NCBI GenBank assembly: GCA_047601445.1
Contig: JASGJH010000001.1
Location: 5,024,001 to 5,088,000, forward strand
DNA length: 64,000 nucleotides
Reading direction: 5' to 3'
Origin: Myxococcales bacterium
GTDB taxonomy: Bacteria > Myxococcota_A > Polyangia > Polyangiales > DASUME01
Part shown: positions 48,785-64,000 of the stretch, piece by piece
Layout of the letters: every line of letters begins with the position of its first letter
Numbering within the stretch: the first letter of the stretch is position 1
Translations under genes and position numbers: made by a program
Notes under the pieces: model-generated
What the model was told of the DNA's origin: nothing
Databases searched by the model: none
The model's input: only the letters and a program-made list of their open reading frames with translations

Positions 48785-50185
48785 ATGGAGCCACCCAAGG
48801 GGTCGGTGCTGCTCGTTGAGCCCAACCCAGCCGCGTCTGCGCCCCTGGCTCTCTTGCTCGAACAGCAAGGCTATCTCGTCCATACGGCCGACTCCGCCCA
48901 GGCCGCCTTGGGAGCAGCGCTCCAAATCGCGCCCGACGTGTTGATGGCCGCGTTGTGCCTGGAAGATCAGGAGCCGGGCCTGTTCGAGCGGCTGCGCGAC
49001 GAGCTGCCCCAGACCTCCATCGTGGCGCTCGGCGAAGCCGAAGGTGATCTCGAGCGCGCCCTGCGCCGCGGCGCCGACCGCTATCTGGTGCGCCCGGTCC
49101 GAGAGCGTGCCTTGGCCATGGTGCTTCAGCGCGCCATGGAGAAGCCGGAGCTGTCCCGCAAGCTCGCCGCCGCCGAGGCGCGTCCTCCCCAATACCAGGA
49201 GGAGCGTCCGAGTTTCGAAGGCATCATCGGTGCCCACCCGACCATGCAGCTGCTGTTCAACCGTGTGATCCAGGCGGCCCGCAGCAAGGCCACCGTGCTG
49301 ATCCACGGTGAGACGGGCACGGGCAAAGAGCTCATCGCGTCCGCGGTCCACAAGAACAGCAAGCGCCGGGAGGGCCCGTTCGTGCGGCTCAACTGCGCGG
49401 CGTTGGCCGAGGGCGTGCTCGAGTCCGAGTTGTTCGGGCACGAGAAGGGCTCCTTCACGGGGGCCCAGGGCACGCGCAAGGGGCGCTTCGAGCAGGGCGA
49501 CGGCGGGACGCTGTTCCTCGACGAGATCAGCGAGATTCCCCCGGGCGTCCAGGTGAAGCTGCTGCGCTTCCTTCAAGAGCGTGAGTTCGAGCGGGTGGGA
49601 GGCAACGAGACCATTCGGGTGGATGTGCGCGTGGTGGCCGCCACCAACCGGGACCTGCGCGTGATGGTCGAGGACGGCAAGTTCCGCGAGGACCTGTATT
49701 ACAGGCTCAACGTGGTGCGCATCGATGTCCCCTCCCTGCGCGCTCGGCCCAGCGACATCACGCTGCTGGCCGACCACTTCCTGATGCGCTTCGCCGAAGA
49801 AAACGAGGCCGACGTGCAGGGCTTCTCGGAGGCCGCGCTGAAGCTGATGCTGGACTACCCGTGGCCGGGAAATGTCCGCGAGCTGATGAATGTCGTGGAG
49901 CAGGCCGTGGTCCTTGCGGGTGGTCCGCTCGTGGAGGCGAGCGAGCTCCCGATCCGGCCCGTGCACAAGCCGCAGGACGCGCTGCCGCTCATGGTCCCGG
50001 GCGTCACGTTGGCCGAGGTCGAGCGCTACGTGATCACCAAAACTCTCGAATCCGTCGATGGATCACGCAACAAGGCCGCCGAAATCCTGGGCATCAGCAG
50101 GCGCACCTTGCAATATCGCCTGCAGGAATGGGGAATCGAGCCGCGCCGCTTCACGTCGACCGCGCGCAAAGAGGGCGCTGATTGA
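48785..50185 (+). CDS. NtrC/AtoC-like sigma54-dependent activator with degenerate receiver domain
   Basis: GETGTGKE, GSFTGA, FLDEISE, WPGNVREL, HTH. Receiver reads PDVLMAAL, with no phospho-Asp. Confidence 0.92.
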   Translation: MEPPKGSVLLVEPNPAASAPLALLLEQQGYLVHTADSAQAALGAALQIAPDVLMAALCLEDQEPGLFERLRDELPQTSIVALGEAEGDLERALRRGADRYLVRPVRERALAMVLQRAMEKPELSRKLAAAEARPPQYQEERPSFEGIIGAHPTMQLLFNRVIQAARSKATVLIHGETGTGKELIASAVHKNSKRREGPFVRLNCAALAEGVLESELFGHEKGSFTGAQGTRKGRFEQGDGGTLFLDEISEIPPGVQVKLLRFLQEREFERVGGNETIRVDVRVVAATNRDLRVMVEDGKFREDLYYRLNVVRIDVPSLRARPSDITLLADHFLMRFAEENEADVQGFSEAALKLMLDYPWPGNVRELMNVVEQAVVLAGGPLVEASELPIRPVHKPQDALPLMVPGVTLAEVERYVITKTLESVDGSRNKAAEILGISRRTLQYRLQEWGIEPRRFTSTARKEGAD

Positions 50186-50373: not shown

Positions 50374-50521
50374 GGCCCGTGCAGAAGTTGCACGGGCCCC
50401 CCGTGCAGAAGTTGCACAAACGCGCCAGCGCGCGGGCCTCGAGCGCGCCCGCGGCGCCGACACGATCTGCAATCGAATTGCATCTAGCCAGACGACGTCC
50501 CGAGTGCACCGAAAAATGCAC
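50374..50521. promoter_or_regulatory. Upstream activator sequences (tandem GTGCA-N5-TGCAC plus further TGCA palindromes)
   Basis: GTGCAGAAGTTGCAC at 50379 and 50403; TGCAATCGAATTGCA at 50468; GTGCACCGAAAAATGCAC at 50504. Confidence 0.65.
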
Positions 50522-50579
50522 GTTTGGAAGGGATTGAGTCAGGCTGCGCGTACATCGCACACAAGTTGCGTCGCCAATC

Positions 50580-50595
50580 TGGCACGTAACCTGCT
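50580..50595 (+). promoter_or_regulatory. sigma54 promoter of the aminomutase operon
   Basis: TGGCACGTAACCTGCT. Confidence 0.7.
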
Positions 50596-50693
50596 CTCTG
50601 CGGCAACACAGCGCGAGTGCTGCGTTGCCACGCACGCTCGATGACCTGGCAAGGGCTCGCCGAAGGACGGCGAGCGGAGGACGAGAAACTCAG

Positions 50694-52133
50694 ATGGCGT
50701 ACGCACTGCCCCTGTTGAAAGAGCCGGAAGGCTCGCCCGAGGAACCTGAACCACCCTCCGGGCATCCGGAACCCGACCATCGCATCCTGCGCGATGGCGA
50801 CTTCTGGCGCCGCGTCCCTGCCTACACGCACGTCTCCCGTACCGACTTCCTCGACCACCTCTGGCAAGCCAAGAACTCGATCACCCGCCCCGAGAAACTC
50901 CTCGACGTTTTGCGCGGTGTGGCCGATGCCGACTTCGTGGCCGACCTGGCCCAGGGCCTGATGTCCGCCCCCATGGCGCTGCGGCTCTCGCCCTACGTGC
51001 TCAGCCTCATCGACTGGAACGATCCCGAGCACGACCCCCTGCGGCGCCAGTTCCTGCCGCTCGCCTCCAGCCAGAAGCCCGACCATCCCTGCGTCGGCCT
51101 GGACTCCCTCGGCGAGCGCCACGACGAGGCCGTGCCCGGCCTGGTGCACCGCTACCCCGACAAGGTCCTCTTGTTGTCTCTGGATACCTGCCCGGTCTAC
51201 TGCAGGTTCTGCACGCGCTCCTACGCCATCGGTCCGGACAACGGCGGTGTCGAGAAGGTCAGCCTCAAGGTCAGCGAGACCCGTTGGGAGGCCGCTTTTC
51301 AGTATATTAAAGCGCACCCGGCCATCGAAGACGTGGTCATCAGCGGCGGTGACACCTACCAGCTCAAGGCCGAGCAGCTCCGGCACATCGGCATGCGGCT
51401 GCTCGATATCCCCCACGTGCGGCGCATGCGCTTCGCCACCAAGGGCCTGGCCGTGATGCCCATGAAGGTGCTCTCGGATCACGCGTGGTTCAACGCCCTC
51501 TCGGAGGTCCACCTGAGCGGCCGCAAGCGCCGCAAGGACGTGGTGGTTCACACCCACTTCAACCACCCCAACGAGATCACGACCATCACCGAGGAGGCCC
51601 TCGGGCGCCTGTTCGAGGCCGGCATCACCGTGCGTAACCAGGCGGTGCTGCAGCGCGGCGTCAACGACGACCCGGCAACCATGCGCAAGCTGCTGCGTCG
51701 GCTCTCCTACGTGAATGTCCACCCCTACTACGTTTATGTCCATGACCTGGTGAAGGGCGTGGAGGATCTGCGCACGAGCGTGGCCACGGCCGAAGAGCTC
51801 GAAAAGGAAATGCGCGGCTCCACGGCGGGCTTCAACACCCCCACCTTCGTGGTCGATGCCCCCGGCGGTGGTGGCAAGCGCGACGTGCACTCCTACGAGC
51901 ACTACGACCGCGTGACGGGTGTCTCCGTGTACACGGCCCCCGTGGTGAAAGCGGGACAGTTCTTCTGCTACGTGGACCCGCTCGACACCTTGCCCGCAGA
52001 CGGGCGTGCGCGCTGGGCCGACCCCTCGGAGCACCGCGAGATCTTGCGCGAGGCCCTGATCGCAGCCGGCGCCGGAGCCGGGGCGGTGCGCGAATTCGAA
52101 GCAGCCGACGCGGCCCACTCGGCCAGCGCCTGA
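50694..52133 (+). CDS. kamA: KamA family radical-SAM/PLP 2,3-aminomutase (lysine 2,3-aminomutase-like)
   Basis: GLVHRYPDKVL, CPVYCRFCTR, SGGD, HFNHP, NQAVL, YYVYVHD, FVVDAPGGGGK (PLP Lys). Confidence 0.88.
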   Translation: MAYALPLLKEPEGSPEEPEPPSGHPEPDHRILRDGDFWRRVPAYTHVSRTDFLDHLWQAKNSITRPEKLLDVLRGVADADFVADLAQGLMSAPMALRLSPYVLSLIDWNDPEHDPLRRQFLPLASSQKPDHPCVGLDSLGERHDEAVPGLVHRYPDKVLLLSLDTCPVYCRFCTRSYAIGPDNGGVEKVSLKVSETRWEAAFQYIKAHPAIEDVVISGGDTYQLKAEQLRHIGMRLLDIPHVRRMRFATKGLAVMPMKVLSDHAWFNALSEVHLSGRKRRKDVVVHTHFNHPNEITTITEEALGRLFEAGITVRNQAVLQRGVNDDPATMRKLLRRLSYVNVHPYYVYVHDLVKGVEDLRTSVATAEELEKEMRGSTAGFNTPTFVVDAPGGGGKRDVHSYEHYDRVTGVSVYTAPVVKAGQFFCYVDPLDTLPADGRARWADPSEHREILREALIAAGAGAGAVREFEAADAAHSASA

Positions 52134-52140
52134 GCGACGG

Positions 52141-53277
52141 ATGTCCGCCTCTCCCCACAGTGAGCGCCGTCGCGCGCGCGAGCTCGGCTTGGGTCCCGGT
52201 CGCTTCGAGCCGGGCCGGCTCAACGCCATTACCGACGTGGCGGGTGTCCGCGTGGGGCAAGTCACCCTGCGTGCCGAAGCCGACGGTCCTGACCGCGGCC
52301 CGGTGCGCACGGGGGTCACGGCCATCGTGCCGGCCGAGGGAGTGTATGCGGAACGCGTGATGGCGGGCTCGTTCGTACTCAACGGAGCCGGCGAGCTGAT
52401 GGGCCTCACGCAGGTGGCGGAGTGGGGGCTCATCGAGACGCCCATCCTGCTCACCGACACGCTCTCCGTGGGCGTGGTGGGGGACGCGGTGGTCCAGCAC
52501 GTGATCGCGCGCGAGCCCACCATGGGCCGCAGCACGGACGTGGTGATCCCCGTGGTCGGCGAGTGCGACGACTCATGGATGCACGACGTGCGGGGGCGTC
52601 ACGTGCGAGCCGAGCACGTGCTCCAGGCCCTCGAAGAAGCCAGCTCCGGACCCGTGGCCGAGGGCAACGTGGGCGCCGGCACGGGCATGATCACCTGCGA
52701 TTTCGCGGGCGGCGTGGGCACCGCATCGCGCTTGGTCCCCTATCCACACGGGACGTACACGCTGGGCGTGCTGGTACTCTCCAATTTCGGCACCCGCGAC
52801 GAGCTCACCATGGACGGGCTCAAGGTCGGGCAGGCACTCGCGGAATACCGGGGCGAAGCAAGTCGCCGCACCGCCTACGGCAGCATCGTGGCCGTCCTGG
52901 CCACCGACGCACCGCTCCTGCCTCAGCAGCTCGACCGGCTCAGCAAGCGCATGGCCCTCGGCATCGGTCGGGTGGGCTCCTCGGCGGCCAACGGCTCCGG
53001 CGAGATCTGTCTCGCCTTCTCCACCCACAACCGCGTCCCGCGTGAGCGCAAGGGTGCTCTGCTCACGCTGAACTGCCTGGCGGACCCGGAACTGAACCCG
53101 CTCTTTCAGGCAGCGATTGAAACCACCGAAGAAGCGATCTTGAATGCGCTGTGCATGGGGACCGACCTGCGCGGCATCGACGACCATTTTTGTCCGGCCC
53201 TGCCCCTCGAGCAGCTGGCCGGATTGCGCAGGGCGCGCGAACAGGGCGTGGGCTCGCGGGCAGCGACCGAGCGATAG
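52141..53277 (+). CDS. P1/S58 family self-cleaving aminopeptidase (DmpA/BapA-like)
   Basis: NAITDVAGVRVG, NGAGE, PVVGECDD, EGNVGAGTGM, G|SI autocleavage site, SGEI. Confidence 0.92.
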   Translation: MSASPHSERRRARELGLGPGRFEPGRLNAITDVAGVRVGQVTLRAEADGPDRGPVRTGVTAIVPAEGVYAERVMAGSFVLNGAGELMGLTQVAEWGLIETPILLTDTLSVGVVGDAVVQHVIAREPTMGRSTDVVIPVVGECDDSWMHDVRGRHVRAEHVLQALEEASSGPVAEGNVGAGTGMITCDFAGGVGTASRLVPYPHGTYTLGVLVLSNFGTRDELTMDGLKVGQALAEYRGEASRRTAYGSIVAVLATDAPLLPQQLDRLSKRMALGIGRVGSSAANGSGEICLAFSTHNRVPRERKGALLTLNCLADPELNPLFQAAIETTEEAILNALCMGTDLRGIDDHFCPALPLEQLAGLRRAREQGVGSRAATER

Positions 53278-53335
53278 CCGACCAGTCCGCGGTGCCCGGC
53301 CGCAGGCAAACAGTGACAACACCGAAAGGCAGTGA

Positions 53336-54436
53336 GTGATGGACAGCGTGCAGACGACCCCCAATGCGGCACAGAGCGACAACGGCGCCGCCCGCGTCGA
53401 TGAGAAGAAGCGGCCGGTGCGACGCGCGGGCATGCTCAAGGTCGGTCTGGTCTACAACCTGCGCCGCGTGACCGTGGCCGAGGGCGACACCGAAGCCGAG
53501 TTCGACACGCCCACCACCATCGAAGCTCTGTGCAACGCGATCCGCGTGCAGGGCCATGACGTGGTGAAGCTCGAAGCCAACGCCGAGCTCCCCGTGTCGC
53601 TGCGCGACGCGGGCGTCGACATGGTGTTCAACATCGCCGAGGGCTTGAGCGGAATGAACCGCGAGGCTCAGGTGCCCGCCCTGTGCGAGATGCTCGGCAT
53701 CGAATACACGGGCTCGGACGCTGCCTGCATGGCCGTCACGCTCAACAAGGCCATCGCCAAGCGCCTGGTGGCTCAAGACGAGATTCACACGCCAGCCTTC
53801 GCGGTGCTGCACACGGGCAAGGAGAAGCTGCCCAAGAACTTCACCTTCCCCGCCATCGTGAAGCCCATCGCCGAGGGCAGCTCCAAGGGCATCCTGGAGA
53901 AGCAGGTGGTGGAGAACGAAGCCGACCTACGCCACGTGGCGCAGCTGCTGGTGCGCCGCTATCGCCAGCCGGTGCTGGCCGAGGCCTTCTTGCCCGGCCG
54001 CGAGTTCACCGTGGCGCTGCTCGGCGAGCGCAAGCCGCGCGTGCTGCCCATCATGGAGATCGTCTTCACCGACGCAAACGATCCGTTCCCCACGTACACG
54101 TTCAAGAGCAAGTTCGAAGGCGTGGGCGTGGAGAACAAGGTGCCCTGCGAGGTGGACCCGCTGCTCCTCAAGCAGCTCGAGCGCACCGCCAAGGCGGCCT
54201 TCCAGGCCGTCGGCTGCCGCGACCTCGCGCGCATCGATCTCCGACTCGACGCCCAGGGCCGCGTGCATTTCATCGAGTGCAACCCGCTGCCCGGCATGGC
54301 GCCGAACTTCAGCGACCTGTGCATGATGGCCAAGGCCGAGAACAAGACCTACGACGACCTGGTGGCGGAGATCATGGCTCCGGCGGTGCGCCGCTTCCGC
54401 GCGCAGAAGCGAGAGCAAGTCTCGGTCGTGGCCTGA
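53336..54436 (+). CDS. D-Ala-D-Ala-ligase-like ATP-grasp amidoligase (non-canonical)
   Basis: AEFDT, VFNIAEG, REAQVP, VKPIAEGSSKGI, GREFTV, ARIDLR, IECNPLPG. Lacks the GG.S.E N-terminal motif of housekeeping Ddl. Confidence 0.88.
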   Translation: MMDSVQTTPNAAQSDNGAARVDEKKRPVRRAGMLKVGLVYNLRRVTVAEGDTEAEFDTPTTIEALCNAIRVQGHDVVKLEANAELPVSLRDAGVDMVFNIAEGLSGMNREAQVPALCEMLGIEYTGSDAACMAVTLNKAIAKRLVAQDEIHTPAFAVLHTGKEKLPKNFTFPAIVKPIAEGSSKGILEKQVVENEADLRHVAQLLVRRYRQPVLAEAFLPGREFTVALLGERKPRVLPIMEIVFTDANDPFPTYTFKSKFEGVGVENKVPCEVDPLLLKQLERTAKAAFQAVGCRDLARIDLRLDAQGRVHFIECNPLPGMAPNFSDLCMMAKAENKTYDDLVAEIMAPAVRRFRAQKREQVSVVA

Positions 54437-54673
54437 ACTCCGCGCCAGACGCCGCTCGCTCGCCCCCTGCGCGCGGCACGCGAACCATCCCAAGATGGGG
54501 TGAACGCGCCGCCATCGAGTCCCCCTCGAACGCGCCGACTGCAAAATGCCCACGGTTGTAGTGGACGAACGAGCCGCGCGGACCACGCTTCGCGCGTGCT
54601 CGACCCGGCGCACTCCACTCGCCCGCAGGCGTACCCAGGCAAAGAAGCCAGCGAAACCACGCGCTTCGCCTGG

Positions 54674-55726
54674 ATGGACCGGGTATGGCGCTGGTTCGAG
54701 TCCGTCTCGGAGCTCAAGTTCGGCGCGCTGCTCGCGTTGCTCGTGGTCTTGCGCTCGGGGGTGCACATCGAGCTCGACCTGGAATGGCTTCCGCAATGCG
54801 TGGCCGCCTTCCCGCACTTGTCCGGCAATTTTCGCTGCCACAACGCCATCATCTCGGTGTTGCCGTGGTTGCTCCACGTGGACACGGCCGTCGAGTGGTC
54901 ACGCCTGCACGCTGCGCTGCTGGGGGGCTCTCTCTTCGGTACCCTGGTGCTCGCCTATCGCTTCGCGCCGGGCATCCGCTTCAAGCAACTCGCACTCTGG
55001 TTGGGCCTGAGCGCGATGCCGGTGGCATTGCTCCAGACCCGCGTCTACTACGACCCCTACGCCATCTTCGGGGGCTCGTTGCTGGCCCTCGCGCACGGCC
55101 CGTTCGCCATCTTCGCAGGTGGCCTCTTGCTGGGACTTTCGCATCCGGAGATGAGCCTGGTGGCCGCGCTCAGCGTGGGCTCCGTGGCCCTGGCCCTCGA
55201 CTTGGTGCGCACGCGACGCATCAAGCTCGCCCTCGTGAGCTGCGTGCTCGGGGCCGCCCTCACCAAGCTCCACGGTTGGCTCGATCCACCCGCGGGCCTC
55301 GATCGCGCCGGTGTACTCGGACGCAGCGTGCGATCCGCGCTGTTTCACGCCACCCAGAGCGGCACCATGGGCCTCTACGCGTGCCACGGACTGGCCTGGC
55401 TCTTGATTGTCGCCTACCTGCTCCACGCGCGCGCATCAGCGCGACAGCGCCTGTGGCTCGTGACGGGCCTCGTGATCTTGCCGGGCATCGTGACGCTGAT
55501 CACTCTGGACGGCACACGCGTCTTCGTGGGCACCGTGTGGCCGGCCTTCGTGATCTTCGTCTCCACGCTACTGGCGCGCAGCCAACGCGGAGATTCGCCG
55601 GTGCCCATTCGCACGCTCACTTGTGTGGCGCTGGTGATGGCCTTGATCGCGCCCTCTTACATCTCGGGCGGCGGCCACGTCTCCCGCCCCCGCTTCGGCT
55701 CACTGGCAAAGCACTCGCTGGAGTAG
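54674..55726 (+). CDS. Polytopic membrane protein (paralog of 60077-61201)
   Basis: ~9 hydrophobic segments; YDPY, HPE, QSGTMGLYAC and DGTRVF shared with the paralog. Confidence 0.7.
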   Translation: MDRVWRWFESVSELKFGALLALLVVLRSGVHIELDLEWLPQCVAAFPHLSGNFRCHNAIISVLPWLLHVDTAVEWSRLHAALLGGSLFGTLVLAYRFAPGIRFKQLALWLGLSAMPVALLQTRVYYDPYAIFGGSLLALAHGPFAIFAGGLLLGLSHPEMSLVAALSVGSVALALDLVRTRRIKLALVSCVLGAALTKLHGWLDPPAGLDRAGVLGRSVRSALFHATQSGTMGLYACHGLAWLLIVAYLLHARASARQRLWLVTGLVILPGIVTLITLDGTRVFVGTVWPAFVIFVSTLLARSQRGDSPVPIRTLTCVALVMALIAPSYISGGGHVSRPRFGSLAKHSLE

Positions 55727-60076: not shown

Positions 60077-61201
60077 TCACAGACCCTTCAGGCGAAACCA
60101 GCCGTTGATCCCCGGCATCGAGAACCCGGACTTCATGCGGACGAAGGCCGGGAGCAGGGCCACCGAAAGGACCAGCAGTGCGCTCAGGGTCTCCATGGGC
60201 TGGTCGGCGTCCTCCCGGGTCTCCTCGAGGGATTGAACCAGGAAGGCGAGGAACGCAGGCCAAGCGGTGCACACGAAGACCCGCGTCCCGTCGCGGGTCG
60301 CGAGCGTCACGAGGCCCGGGACGAGGAGCATCCCGAGGGCGACGCGCCGCTTGCGAGCGGTACTGGCCGGGTCCAACAGGAGCCACCCGGCGACGAGCAG
60401 CCAAGCGGCCCCGTAGCAAGCGTAGAGACCCATGGTTCCGGATTGCATGGCGACGCGCAGCGAGAGCCCGAGCGCAGCCGGAAGGATCTCGAGCCGCGTG
60501 TCCCCCGTGTGCGCCGAGAGTGCCGCGTAGAGCATGCAACAGACCGCCGATGCGCCAAGGCCGAGGGCCCCTGGGATGACGACTCGACGAGGCCGCGAGC
60601 CCCACGCAACGATCAGCCACGCAGCTGCTGCGACCAGAGCTTGCTCGGGATTCGCCGCTCCGATCACGATGCCCCCGAGGGCCGCAACGACGGGAGAGGG
60701 CGCGAGCCCCAACAGCGTGCCGCCGAGAATGGTGTACACGTCGTAGTGCTCGCGAGGATTCAGCAACACACTTGGCATCGAGCTCGCCGAGATCCAGAGC
60801 AGCGCGAGACGGCCTCTCGGACCCGTTCCAAGCGTCACGAAGGTAAGCGTTGCGGCCAGGAGCAAAGCGCCAGCGGTGAGGCCCGCGTGGAGCAGCTTCC
60901 ACTGAGTCAGGCTCTCCAGGCCGAGCAGCTTGGGCAGCGCGAAGATCACGAGCCCATGGCAGCGAAAGTCGGCCGTGGTCACCGACAGATCTGCGAAGCA
61001 CTTGAGCGTGGGATCCGTGGCCGGGTTGAAATTGAAGCCGTGCGCTCCATTGCGAAGCAGCATGACGCCAGCCACGAGCGCCGTGAACCACGCGACGTGG
61101 ATGCGGTAGACGTCTGCCAGGATCCGCCCCTCGATGGCACGCCAGCGGGAGCGAGCGGGAGCTAGACGCGCTGGCTTCAACACCACTTCGTGGAGGCTCA
61201 T
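60077..61201 (-). CDS. Polytopic membrane protein (paralog of 54674-55726)
   Basis: DFRCH, YDVY, NPEQ, QSGTMGLYAC, DGTRVF. Confidence 0.7.
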   Translation of the reverse strand: MSLHEVVLKPARLAPARSRWRAIEGRILADVYRIHVAWFTALVAGVMLLRNGAHGFNFNPATDPTLKCFADLSVTTADFRCHGLVIFALPKLLGLESLTQWKLLHAGLTAGALLLAATLTFVTLGTGPRGRLALLWISASSMPSVLLNPREHYDVYTILGGTLLGLAPSPVVAALGGIVIGAANPEQALVAAAAWLIVAWGSRPRRVVIPGALGLGASAVCCMLYAALSAHTGDTRLEILPAALGLSLRVAMQSGTMGLYACYGAAWLLVAGWLLLDPASTARKRRVALGMLLVPGLVTLATRDGTRVFVCTAWPAFLAFLVQSLEETREDADQPMETLSALLVLSVALLPAFVRMKSGFSMPGINGWFRLKGL

Positions 61202-61309
61202 GGCTCGAGGCTTTCCGTCGTCGTCTGCAAAACGCGGCAATATGGCCGCGAATGCTCACGACTTCGAGCCCAGCCCCCAGGAAGGTAGGGGTGAAGCGCT
61301 CGACGTGAG

Positions 61310-62701
61310 TCAGGGCTTCAGATGAATCGAGCGCGTCCGCGTGAGCTGATCGAACCCGAGCACGCTCAAGCTATGCCCTCTTCCCGACTGGTTCACGCCG
61401 CTCCAGGGTAGGCGCGGATCCACGTGGTCGCAGCGGTTCATGAACACGGTGCCGAAGTTCAGCTCGCGGGCGAAGCGCTCGGCGCGCTGGCTGTCGTTGG
61501 TCCACACGCTGGCGGTGAGTCCGTATTCGGAGTCGTTCATCGCCTTCAAAGCCTCTTCGTCCGACTTCACCTTCTGGATGGCCAGGATGGGACCGAACTG
61601 TTCGTCGCGCATCACGCGGGCGCTCTGCGGCACGTCGGCCAACACAGTGGGCATGAAGAAACGGCCACGCTCACCCACCTGGGTGCGCTCGCCGCCAACC
61701 ACCAGGCGCGCTCCTGCGCGCACGGCCTCGCGTACCAGGGCCTCGAGCTCCGCCACATGATGCGGCTGCGCCACGGGGCCGAGCGAGGTGTTGGGGTCGA
61801 GCGGATCCCCGAGCACGTAGGCCTCGGCGAGCTTCTTCGCGCCCTCCACGAAGGCGTCGTAGTGCTTCTCGTGCACGTAGGCGCGCTCCACCGCGCAGCA
61901 GCTCTGGCCCGCGTTGTACATGGCGCCATCCACCAGGTTCTCCACGGCGCGCGCCACGTCGGCGTCCTCTGCCACGTAGGCCGGGTCGTTGCCGCCGAGC
62001 TCGTAGCCAATCTGCAGGAAGCGCCCTGCGGCCGCCTCGCTCACCTTGCGTCCACCCAGCACGGAGCCGGTGAACACCACGTGATCCACGCGCGGATCGG
62101 CCACCATCTTGGCGGTGAGCTCGTGCGTGCAATCCAGGGCCTGCACGATGCGCGGATCGGCACCCGCCTCGGCGAACGCTTCAGCGAACATGGGGCCACA
62201 CAGCGGCGAGCGCGGCGAGTGCTTCACGATCACCGCATTGCCAGCGAGCACGGCGGGCATCACCACGTTGACCGCCGTCAACAGCGGGTAGTTCCAGGCG
62301 GGCAAGTCGAGCACCACACCGAGGGGCACCTTGATGATGCGGCGCGTGATCCCGTCATCCCCAGCGACCTCGATGGGAGCCAAGCCCTTGTCGGCCTGCT
62401 CGATCATCGCGCGCGCTCGCACTGCCATGGTGCGTAGCTCGCCCTGGGCCTGCTTCTCGGGCTTGCCCATCATGCGACTGATCTCGGCGCAGTAGCGCTC
62501 TGCGCGCGACTCCATCACCTGCGTGGCACGCTCCACCAACACCTTGCGATCGGCCAGCGACATCGCCTGCACGATGCGGGCCCCCTCTCGGGCTCGCGCG
62601 AGGAGCTGGTCGATCTGCTCCCAGTCCGCGAGCGGCACCTCGCATGCGAGGTTGAGCGTGAAGGGATTGTCGACTTTGAGGGTTCCGGCTGAGCTCGTCA
62701 T
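61310..62701 (-). CDS. Aldehyde dehydrogenase family protein
   Basis: AWNYP, FTGS, ELGG, NAGQSCC, EQFGP. Confidence 0.93.
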   Translation of the reverse strand: MTSSAGTLKVDNPFTLNLACEVPLADWEQIDQLLARAREGARIVQAMSLADRKVLVERATQVMESRAERYCAEISRMMGKPEKQAQGELRTMAVRARAMIEQADKGLAPIEVAGDDGITRRIIKVPLGVVLDLPAWNYPLLTAVNVVMPAVLAGNAVIVKHSPRSPLCGPMFAEAFAEAGADPRIVQALDCTHELTAKMVADPRVDHVVFTGSVLGGRKVSEAAAGRFLQIGYELGGNDPAYVAEDADVARAVENLVDGAMYNAGQSCCAVERAYVHEKHYDAFVEGAKKLAEAYVLGDPLDPNTSLGPVAQPHHVAELEALVREAVRAGARLVVGGERTQVGERGRFFMPTVLADVPQSARVMRDEQFGPILAIQKVKSDEEALKAMNDSEYGLTASVWTNDSQRAERFARELNFGTVFMNRCDHVDPRLPWSGVNQSGRGHSLSVLGFDQLTRTRSIHLKP

Positions 62702-62831
62702 TGCCGCGGGATGATCGCGCAGAGCTCGAGCTTGTTCAAGGCCACGGCGAGCTCGGCGAAGGCAAAAGCGAAGACCGCCCCAGCCCGTAGCCGGATAGGG
62801 CGAAAGCGAAAAAGCGAAAACCGTCCCCTGC

Positions 62832-64000
62832 TCAGAGAAGGCGGCGGAGCCAGCCCTCTTTCGATTCCGTGTAGGGCGGGTAGGCAAAGCTCGGGTCGAT
62901 GAAGGAGCCCTTTTTCAGGACTGCCTTTTTGTGACTGAATGTGTCGAACGAGTGTTTGCCGTGGTAGGCGCCCATGCCGCTCTCGCCCACGCCCCCGAAT
63001 GGCAGGGAGTGCACGCCCAGGTGGATCATGGCGTGGTTCATCACCATGCCGCCCGAGCTGGTGCGAGACACGACCTGCTCGTAGGACGCATCGCTGCCCG
63101 AGAACAGGTAAAGTGCGAGGGGCTTGGGACGCGCGTTGATGAACCCGATGGCTTGCTCGAGGTTGTCCACCTTGATCACCGGCAGGATGGGCCCGAAGAT
63201 TTCGTCCCGCATGATGGGCGCCTCGGGGCCGACGCCGGTGAGGATGGTGGGCGCGAGATAGCGATCCGACTCATCCCCCACGCCGCCGACTGCCACCTCT
63301 CCGCTGCCCGGGAGCAAGCTCATCAAGCGGCGATGATGGCGCGCGTTCACGATGCGCCCGTAGTCCTTGCTGCGCTGGGGGTCCTCGCCGAAGAACTCCT
63401 TGAGGGTGTCCTTCAGCTTCGTCACGAATGCGTCGTGCACGGAGGCGTGCACGAGCAGGTAGTCCGGCGCCACGCAGGTCTGACCGCAGTTGTAGAACTT
63501 GGTCCAGGCCACGCGGCGAGCGCCCACCTCGAGATCCACGCTTTCGTCGATGATGCACGGGCTCTTGCCGCCCAGCTCGAGCGTGACCGGCGTGAGGTGC
63601 TTGGCCGCGGCTTGCATCACGATGCGTCCCACGGTGCCGTTGCCGGTGTAGAAGATGTGATCGAAGCGCTGGGCCAGGAGCTCGGTGGTCTCGGGCACGG
63701 CGCCCTCCACCACGGCCACAGCCTCTTGATCGAGGTACTTGGGCAAGAGACGCGCGAGCAGCGCGCTGGTGGCCGGCGCGACCTCGGAGGGCTTCACCAC
63801 CACGCAGTTACCCGCCGCGAGTGCCCCTGCGATGGGGTTGATGGCCAATGAGAAGGGATAGTTCCAGGGCGTGATCACCAGCACCACGCCGAGCGGCTCG
63901 CGCACGATGCGGCTCTTGCCGGGCATGGCGGCCACCGCCGTGGACACGCGCTCGGGCTTCATCCACTTGCGCAGGTTCTTCTTGATGTACTTGGTGCCGT
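62832..64000 (-). CDS. Aldehyde dehydrogenase (ALDH3 / coniferyl-aldehyde type); 5' end outside the window
   Basis: PWNYP, FYTG, LELGGKSP, NCGQTC, EIFGP, PKPLALY, LPFGGVG.SGMG.YHG. Confidence 0.93.
   Translation of the reverse strand, partial: GTKYIKKNLRKWMKPERVSTAVAAMPGKSRIVREPLGVVLVITPWNYPFSLAINPIAGALAAGNCVVVKPSEVAPATSALLARLLPKYLDQEAVAVVEGAVPETTELLAQRFDHIFYTGNGTVGRIVMQAAAKHLTPVTLELGGKSPCIIDESVDLEVGARRVAWTKFYNCGQTCVAPDYLLVHASVHDAFVTKLKDTLKEFFGEDPQRSKDYGRIVNARHHRRLMSLLPGSGEVAVGGVGDESDRYLAPTILTGVGPEAPIMRDEIFGPILPVIKVDNLEQAIGFINARPKPLALYLFSGSDASYEQVVSRTSSGGMVMNHAMIHLGVHSLPFGGVGESGMGAYHGKHSFDTFSHKKAVLKKGSFIDPSFAYPPYTESKEGWLRRLL

Follow-up and report, generated by a model that had tools for sequence, protein, structure and literature searches.

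What does a myxobacterium make with an aminomutase, a self-processing aminopeptidase, and an amide ligase encoded one behind the other downstream of a predicted sigma54 promoter? The question is raised by a 64,000-nucleotide stretch of a Myxococcales bacterium genome (contig JASGJH010000001.1, positions 5,024,001 to 5,088,000; hereafter the window), which carries genes for a KamA-family mutase, an S58 peptidase, and a Ddl-like ATP-grasp ligase. Our answer has two parts. The locus physically joins two conserved pairings, ligase with S58 and ligase with KamA. In addition, we propose with moderate confidence, from the sequences and their distribution, that the operon would make beta-lysine and join it to a basic amine, that a dispersed ligase and acetylase would finish the product, and that S58 would recycle it. 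The operon is uncharacterized and its arrangement is new, while the enzyme families are known; it is not a new kind of machine. Its elements are the following, in window coordinates.

48785-50185, plus strand: predicted sigma54-dependent activator with receiver, AAA+, and HTH domains (Pfam PF00158, PF00072, and PF02954; sequence)
50379-50393 and 50403-50417, unstranded: tandem palindrome, two copies of GTGCAGAAGTTGCAC, candidate enhancer for the activator (shuffles, genome scan, genus alignment)
50468-50482, unstranded: third, weaker palindrome, TGCAATCGAATTGCA, partly conserved across the genus sequences (sequence)
50579-50595, plus strand: predicted sigma54 -24/-12 promoter, CTGGCACG-N4-CTGCT (invariance in the genus alignment)
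50694-52133, plus strand: KamA-family radical S-adenosylmethionine/pyridoxal phosphate (PLP) aminomutase, 479 aa (TIGR00238 match, residues, tree)
52141-53277, plus strand: S58 (MEROPS P1, DmpA/BapA-type) self-processing aminopeptidase, an accessory gene, 378 aa (PF03576, PDB alignments, motif, tree)
53339-54436, plus strand: Ddl-fold ATP-grasp amide ligase of the cassette "LigA" clade, 365 aa (cut-offs, tree, residues, AlphaFold2 model)

The gene calls bear out the view of an earlier note on this DNA that three linked genes follow a sigma54 promoter, with gaps of 7 bp between KamA and S58 and of 61 bp between S58 and the ligase (58 bp counted from a GTG). Taken alone, the promoter motif is weak, with 103 looser matches across the genome; the CTGGCACG-N4-CTGCT element is identical in all eight aligned genus sequences, in which the flanks diverge. 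The tandem palindrome GTGCAGAAGTTGCAC, which the earlier note had passed over together with the activator gene, lies some 160 to 200 bp upstream of the promoter. Such a pair arose in none of 100 shuffles and is unique in the 9.5-Mb genome, and both copies are recognizable in seven of the eight aligned genus sequences, the eighth contig beginning inside the palindrome. The activator gene stands immediately 5' of the mutase gene in all six genus loci whose contig extends that far; its product is likely the operon's own activator, and the tandem is a candidate enhancer for it. Since neither the usual acidic pocket nor the phospho-acceptor Asp is present in its receiver (48785-49130), which reads PDVLMAA, the activator may not be switched by phosphorylation. 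A -24/-12 element, upstream enhancer-like sites, and an activator gene, the hallmarks of a sigma54 operon, are thus all present at the sequence level, and at that level the activator, mutase, S58, and ligase genes constitute a four-gene unit under separate control. A scan for sigma70 promoters and terminators yielded nothing exceeding shuffles.

The mutase passed the KamA family model TIGR00238 (242.8, against a cut-off of 199.2) and stayed below the cut-offs of the more specific models, namely, the AblA equivalog TIGR03820 (257.8 against 525.4), EpmB TIGR03821 (183.7 against 369.3), and the arginine (216 against 600) and glutamate (214 against 650) models. Aligned to lysine 2,3-aminomutase (LAM) of C. 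subterminale (2a5h), it keeps C166, C170, and C173, R175 (equivalent to R134), D351 (D293), D388 (D330), and K395 (K337), so that the CxxxCxxC motif, the PLP lysine, and both Asp residues highlighted in the earlier note are indeed all there. The roles of R134, D293, D330, and K337 in LAM are what a lysine mutase is recognized by here. Of 98 KamAs aligned from the loci retrieved, 97 kept both Asp residues. To go by these features, the window mutase probably makes beta-lysine, that is, acts as a lysine 2,3-aminomutase. Comparisons were extended to 9 other genomes of the genus, 51 further genomes of the order, and 300 genomes of the phylum, the phylum counts being made with strict E-value limits, with no more than 6 candidates per genome scored, and over related genomes that are not independent. 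The myxobacterial/fungal clade of the window mutase was found in 107 of the 300 phylum genomes; a fungal relative is 47% identical, and the only fusion that turned up, in a weak search, was one fungal match of 1,124 aa. Three KamAs are encoded in the genome, the window copy falling in a genus-specific clade (support, 1.0) as a "second copy." Another KamA of the myxobacterial type (L039:8160-10736; G000:C1:1323153) faces a sulfotransferase gene, a neighbor seen in 10 of the 11 loci of that copy, and the third, AblA-like KamA (L040:3773-8032; G000:C1:548670) lies directly 5' of succinate dehydrogenase-like genes, as it also does in L148 and L150.

The ligase is predicted to adopt the three-domain ATP-grasp fold of Ddl: its AlphaFold2 model (pLDDT, 91) found DdlA as the top fold match (Z, 32.2; root mean square deviation, 2.8; 304 aligned residues). 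It scored under the Ddl cut-offs (TIGR01205, 153.6 against 245.65; NF002378, 178.1 against 243), and a true Ddl is encoded elsewhere on the same contig, at C1:2086539 (TIGR01205, 301 against 246). At the substrate site, in DdlB numbering, E101, F259, and D326 of the window ligase replace Ddl H63, Y216, and L282. Among 112 LigA domains, from which 15 fused N-halves are excluded, the H63 position is Glu in all 112 and the L282 position is Asp in 89, and the Y216 position is Phe in all eight genus sequences. All three residues are intact in seven of seven true Ddls, and Y216 is described as kept in ligases that make only D-Ala-D-Ala (10.1101/2020.05.09.085589). The window ligase is, judged by these residues and scores, not a Ddl and not a cell-wall enzyme, in keeping with the earlier note's reading of it as a Ddl-like amide ligase; the extra acids at both of its sub-sites suggest basic substrates. 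In a tree of 190 ligase domains, it falls inside the cassette LigA clade (support, 0.95), and the closest titled loci are Myxococcales/Polyangiales records of 71 to 88% identity. The family comprises at least 5,802 clusters at an E value of ≤1e-20 among 8,000 scored.

What is known of DmpA/BapA-type beta-aminopeptidases comes mostly from synthetic substrates. The window S58 protein matches PF03576 with 376 bits and shares with DmpA (1b65), BapA (3n2w), and the Pyrococcus structure 2drh the Gly|Ser processing site (G247|S248) and the equivalents of E144, N218, and S288/G289. These are key S58 residues (PMC9570944), and both DmpA and BapA remove beta-amino acids from N termini (PMC10531186). Unlike DmpA, the window enzyme is tied to a ligase, has Leu for Q216, and carries Asp143 at the position of Tyr146. 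Asp stands there in all 15 distinct sequences from ligase-bearing loci, and the Gly|Ser motif is present in 15 of 15 as well; we infer that an Asp at this position would suit a basic side chain. The S58 proteins of the window and of the genus genomes G008 and G009 cluster together (support, 1.0), and the tree indicates that S58 is ancestral in the genus and has been lost repeatedly. The possibility that S58 entered the operon by recent transfer was considered and rejected, given this grouping and a GC content at third codon positions of 0.85, compared with 0.88 and 0.92 for the neighboring genes. Near the contig start (G000:C1:620-1640) lies another S58 homologue, broken into several pieces.

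How far does the arrangement extend? Orthologues of mutase and ligase were found in eight of the nine other genus genomes, adjacent in seven and on two contig ends in G006. S58 was found in two of the nine (G008 and G009); it was not found in the remaining genus genomes by a protein search of all of them and a family search of five, and the closest relative, G007, whose KamA is 94% identical, is without it. Across bacteria, S58 occurred in 1 of 80 ligase loci, these being the best 80 of 441 confirmed ones, three of them from the same genus. The whole trio stood together in 1 of the 51 further order genomes, G044, in rearranged order. We therefore rejected the trio as a conserved unit. The earlier note had seen in it a candidate self-contained system and had named lack of conservation as a reason to abandon the idea, which is largely what these counts amount to. 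The note had the peptidase recycle or mature the product; because S58 is so sporadic, and optional within the genus, an obligatory maturation role is unlikely.

What is conserved is each of two pairings. In the 300 phylum genomes, the ligase was matched in 58, S58 in 40, and both in 35, and the two genes lie within 6 kb of each other in 34 of these 35 Myxococcota genomes. In many such pairings, the ligase forms one half, the C-half, of a fused double enzyme, and in G044:C11 (L144:5428-7623) a single frame of 732 aa joins a ligase domain to S58. The second pairing spans many phyla: a KamA gene lies ≤8 kb from the ligase gene in 64 of the 80 ligase loci, with a GNAT gene in 44 and a deacetylase gene in 16, and at the 39 loci of at least 15 kb the respective counts are 35, 28, and 15. 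Most often, the genes run KamA, ligase A, ligase B, GNAT, to which a GNAT-deacetylase gene may or may not be added. Outside the genus, the KamAs of these cassettes are AblA-like and form a different clade, about 31 to 41% identical to the window KamA, which means that the ligase has found partners in two distinct clades of KamA. A variant cassette in G259 (L146:5352-10125) consists of ligase A, ligase B, a methyltransferase-like gene, and a myxobacterial-type KamA; we do not claim a single origin of ligase-linked myxobacterial KamAs, for which tree support was 0.44. Of the make-and-break idea in the earlier note, then, the source of a beta-amino acid beside a non-Ddl amide ligase stands, as does the ligase-S58 linkage, found across Myxococcota and once as a fusion; a self-contained, conserved trio is not supported.

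The window ligase, a member of the LigA clade adjoining a KamA gene, places the operon among the cassettes, and the operon resembles the opening half of an orphan pathway that is widespread and has five genes: KamA, ligase A, ligase B, GNAT, and GNAT-deacetylase. The remaining genes of the set are encoded elsewhere on the contig, 1.7 and 3.8 Mb from the operon.

C1:8841649-8843161: LigB and cassette GNAT (LigB in the LigB clade; support, 0.99)
C1:3412529-3414304: GNAT-deacetylase

The window-type KamA, LigA, LigB, and GNAT-deacetylase occur in the same eight of the nine other genus genomes, in all of which the GNAT gene directly follows that of LigB. The ninth, G001 (99% complete), is without the window-type mutase, LigA, LigB, GNAT, GNAT-deacetylase, and activator, six genes from three loci that are jointly missing, and retains EpmA and two other KamAs. 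The best explanation is that in this genus the pathway is spread over three loci. Of the 51 order genomes beyond the genus, 2 gave a GNAT-deacetylase, and both of these carry LigA/LigB-type ligases. Members of the LigB clade (L249:650-1696) have Trp at the Y216 position in 56 of 56 cases and mostly Ala-Gly at S281/L282, residues that might accommodate an amine acceptor lacking a carboxylate. A search of this genome found no separate N-half of the double ligase. A regulon shared with ligB, the deacetylase, kamD, or the other KamAs was considered and rejected, the upstream stretches of these genes having neither the sigma54 nor the palindrome motif.

Observed genes, families, linkage, promoter conservation, and co-presence form the basis of the following scheme. 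The mutase would convert L-lysine to beta-lysine, as its residues suggest. Ligase A, by its fold, acidic active site, and linkage, would then use ATP to couple beta-lysine by an amide bond to a basic amine, for which lysine, beta-lysine, and a di- or polyamine are candidates. Ligase B, GNAT, and GNAT-deacetylase, brought in by their co-presence, may extend the product and reversibly acetylate it. As an optional last step, S58 would cut off the N-terminal beta-lysyl residue and so recycle the compound. More tentatively, and with less confidence than in the scheme for this operon, we suggest that the ligase-S58 units seen in Myxococcota might belong, together with the KamA-ligase-GNAT-deacetylase cassettes found in many phyla, to one undescribed pathway that the window operon bridges, its product being a reversibly acetylated beta-lysyl amide (e.g., beta-lysyl-lysine or a beta-lysyl-polyamine).

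Several observations weigh against this proposal. The two conserved Asp residues of the mutase do not distinguish lysine from arginine. Among 80 metagenome loci of the window KamA clade, only 36 of which are longer than 8 kb, a ligase neighbor was seen in 1 and S58 in none; the ligase stands near a KamA of this clade in only 1 of the 58 phylum genomes that have the ligase, and 13 of these 58 have no match to the clade at all. The co-loss was seen in one genome only, G001, an assembly of 1,580 contigs with 7% contamination, and the related genomes that keep the genes are not independent of one another. The dispersed LigB, GNAT, and deacetylase genes have no promoter motif in common with the operon. 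The equivalent of Ddl Glu15 in the window ligase is E54 by HMMER and E52 by MAFFT. Finally, most order genomes with a fused double ligase and S58 are without the GNAT-deacetylase, and the two pairings may for that reason give different products.

Against this background, the alternative that survives best retains the self-contained trio: ligase A alone would make a beta-lysyl di- or oligopeptide and S58 would break it, with ligB, GNAT, and deacetylase unrelated. The operon's own promoter and activator would fit this, as would the single-domain ligase and S58 pairs without a second ligase nearby in the Myxococcota genomes G132, G268, G245, and G086, and the trio appears ancestral in the genus, given the S58 grouping of the window with G008 and G009, and recurs rearranged in G044. 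Still, of the eight other genomes in the genus with both mutase and ligase, S58 was not found in six, whereas ligB and the GNAT-deacetylase are in all eight, and we consider this alternative unlikely. It is improbable, furthermore, that the ligases put beta-lysine on a protein or some larger carrier as a reversible tag, which GNAT/deacetylase and S58 would edit. ATP-grasp enzymes that tag proteins do exist, RimK and LysX/ArgX are among the fold matches of the ligase (Z, 22 to 23.5), and writer/eraser-like pairs are present; the best fold matches, however, are ligases of free amino acids (Ddl; Z, 28 to 32), and the 80 ligase loci show no recurrent conserved target gene.

A role in catabolism or salvage, in which S58 would release amino acids from the peptides of prey and the mutase would supply beta-lysine to the kamD/kce route, appears if anything more improbable than tagging. 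The genome has kamD and kce (C1:4589659-4593314), and a lysine 2,3-aminomutase gene of M. xanthus, which may or may not be of the window clade, influences predatory swarming (10.64898/2026.05.15.725110). This role would leave unexplained the ligase, which is the constant partner of the mutase in the genus, and catabolism could be left to the two other KamA copies. Very improbable is a mutase acting on arginine or another basic amino acid, leading to a beta-arginyl amide. The window clade does fall below every specific cut-off, that of AblA included, and no assay of a clade member was found; yet AblA is the top-scoring specific model (258 bits, compared with 216 bits for the arginine model), and the cassette KamAs that accompany ligases of this clade reach 485 to 540 bits against the AblA cut-off of 525. 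A housekeeping pair of Ddl and EpmB, to which the Ddl fold of the ligase and the lack of a mutase next to efp and epmA (C1:2369252-2371041) would conform, is scarcely credible in view of the separate true Ddl, the missed cut-offs and replaced H63/Y216/L282 of the window ligase, the retention of EpmA in G001 without the window mutase copy, and an insertion in the two-domain Ddl-like MXAN_4097 that caused no growth or shape defect (PMC9108774).

In the surroundings of the operon, the earlier note had seen no efp/epmA, lysine-fermentation, or ablB genes: none was found in the scanned flanking open reading frames (ORFs), and genome-wide family searches placed none in the window. The same searches located efp with epmA, and kamD with kce, elsewhere in the genome, the mutase being neither linked to nor co-inherited with efp/epmA. 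No match to ablB (TIGR03827) was found in the genome (98.7% complete). Two hydrophobic ORFs, at 54500-55726 (plus strand) and 60077-61240 (minus strand), have the motif QSGTMGLYAC in common and look like paralogous membrane proteins; the former is without a Pfam or NCBIfam match. Two neighboring ORFs in 61310-63962 (minus strand) are presumably aldehyde dehydrogenases, from the look of their sequences.

Comparison with known systems places the operon further. The window mutase has in common with C. subterminale KamA and the AblA/AblB route the cluster cysteines and the equivalents of R134, D293, D330, and the PLP lysine K337, and that route, which leads to N-epsilon-acetyl-beta-lysine, resembles the wider cassette in coupling beta-lysine supply to acetylation. 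In contrast to LAM and AblA, the window mutase belongs to a separate clade below the AblA cut-off, and its match stops at LAM residue 340, covering only 26 of 127 LAM_C positions; in contrast to AblA/AblB, the ablB gene is not found in the genome, and ligases and a peptidase are added. With DdlA/DdlB and the Van ligases, the window ligase shares, besides the fold, the catalytic K/R/D/E/N residues and the GSS loop; it differs in the H63-to-E, Y216-to-F, and L282-to-D replacements, its lower scores, and the separate true Ddl in the genome. MXAN_4097 of M. xanthus, with two tandem Ddl domains, has by description the architecture of the fused double ligases. It is with the C-halves of these that the window ligase clusters, itself a single domain in a genome where the N-half was not found. 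Disruption of MXAN_4097 had no effect on growth, shape, or motility (PMC9108774).

Two systems may work alike with other parts. The ligase model matches the PylC fold with a Z of 17.8. In the pyrrolysine (Pyl) route, a radical S-adenosylmethionine rearrangement of lysine is followed by ATP-grasp amide formation, and PylB/PylC is in this sense an analogue. The negamycin cluster is another, combining beta-lysine-forming and ATP-grasp genes (10.1101/2025.05.27.656397). The mutase and ligase families of both differ from those in the window, and none of their other genes recur here. In streptothricin, beta-lysine is oligomerized by adenylation domains, a different chemistry (PMC8359417). We found no paper whose title or opening of the abstract describes the present system, many subscription papers lying outside the search. 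KamA-ligase neighborhoods may already figure in the amidoligase-neighborhood survey of Iyer et al. 2009.

In conclusion, this locus brings a mutase, a ligase, and a peptidase under one dedicated promoter in a lineage of aerobic type, and the missing partners can be named in the same genome, so that the pathway becomes testable with five or six proteins. The ligase family concerned is large and automatically annotated as D-Ala-D-Ala ligase, and no described product was found for it. If the more tentative reading of a single pathway is correct, a beta-lysyl amide would provide the cell with a protease-proof nitrogen store, a stress solute, or a signal. It would likewise be a natural substrate of DmpA/BapA-type peptidases.

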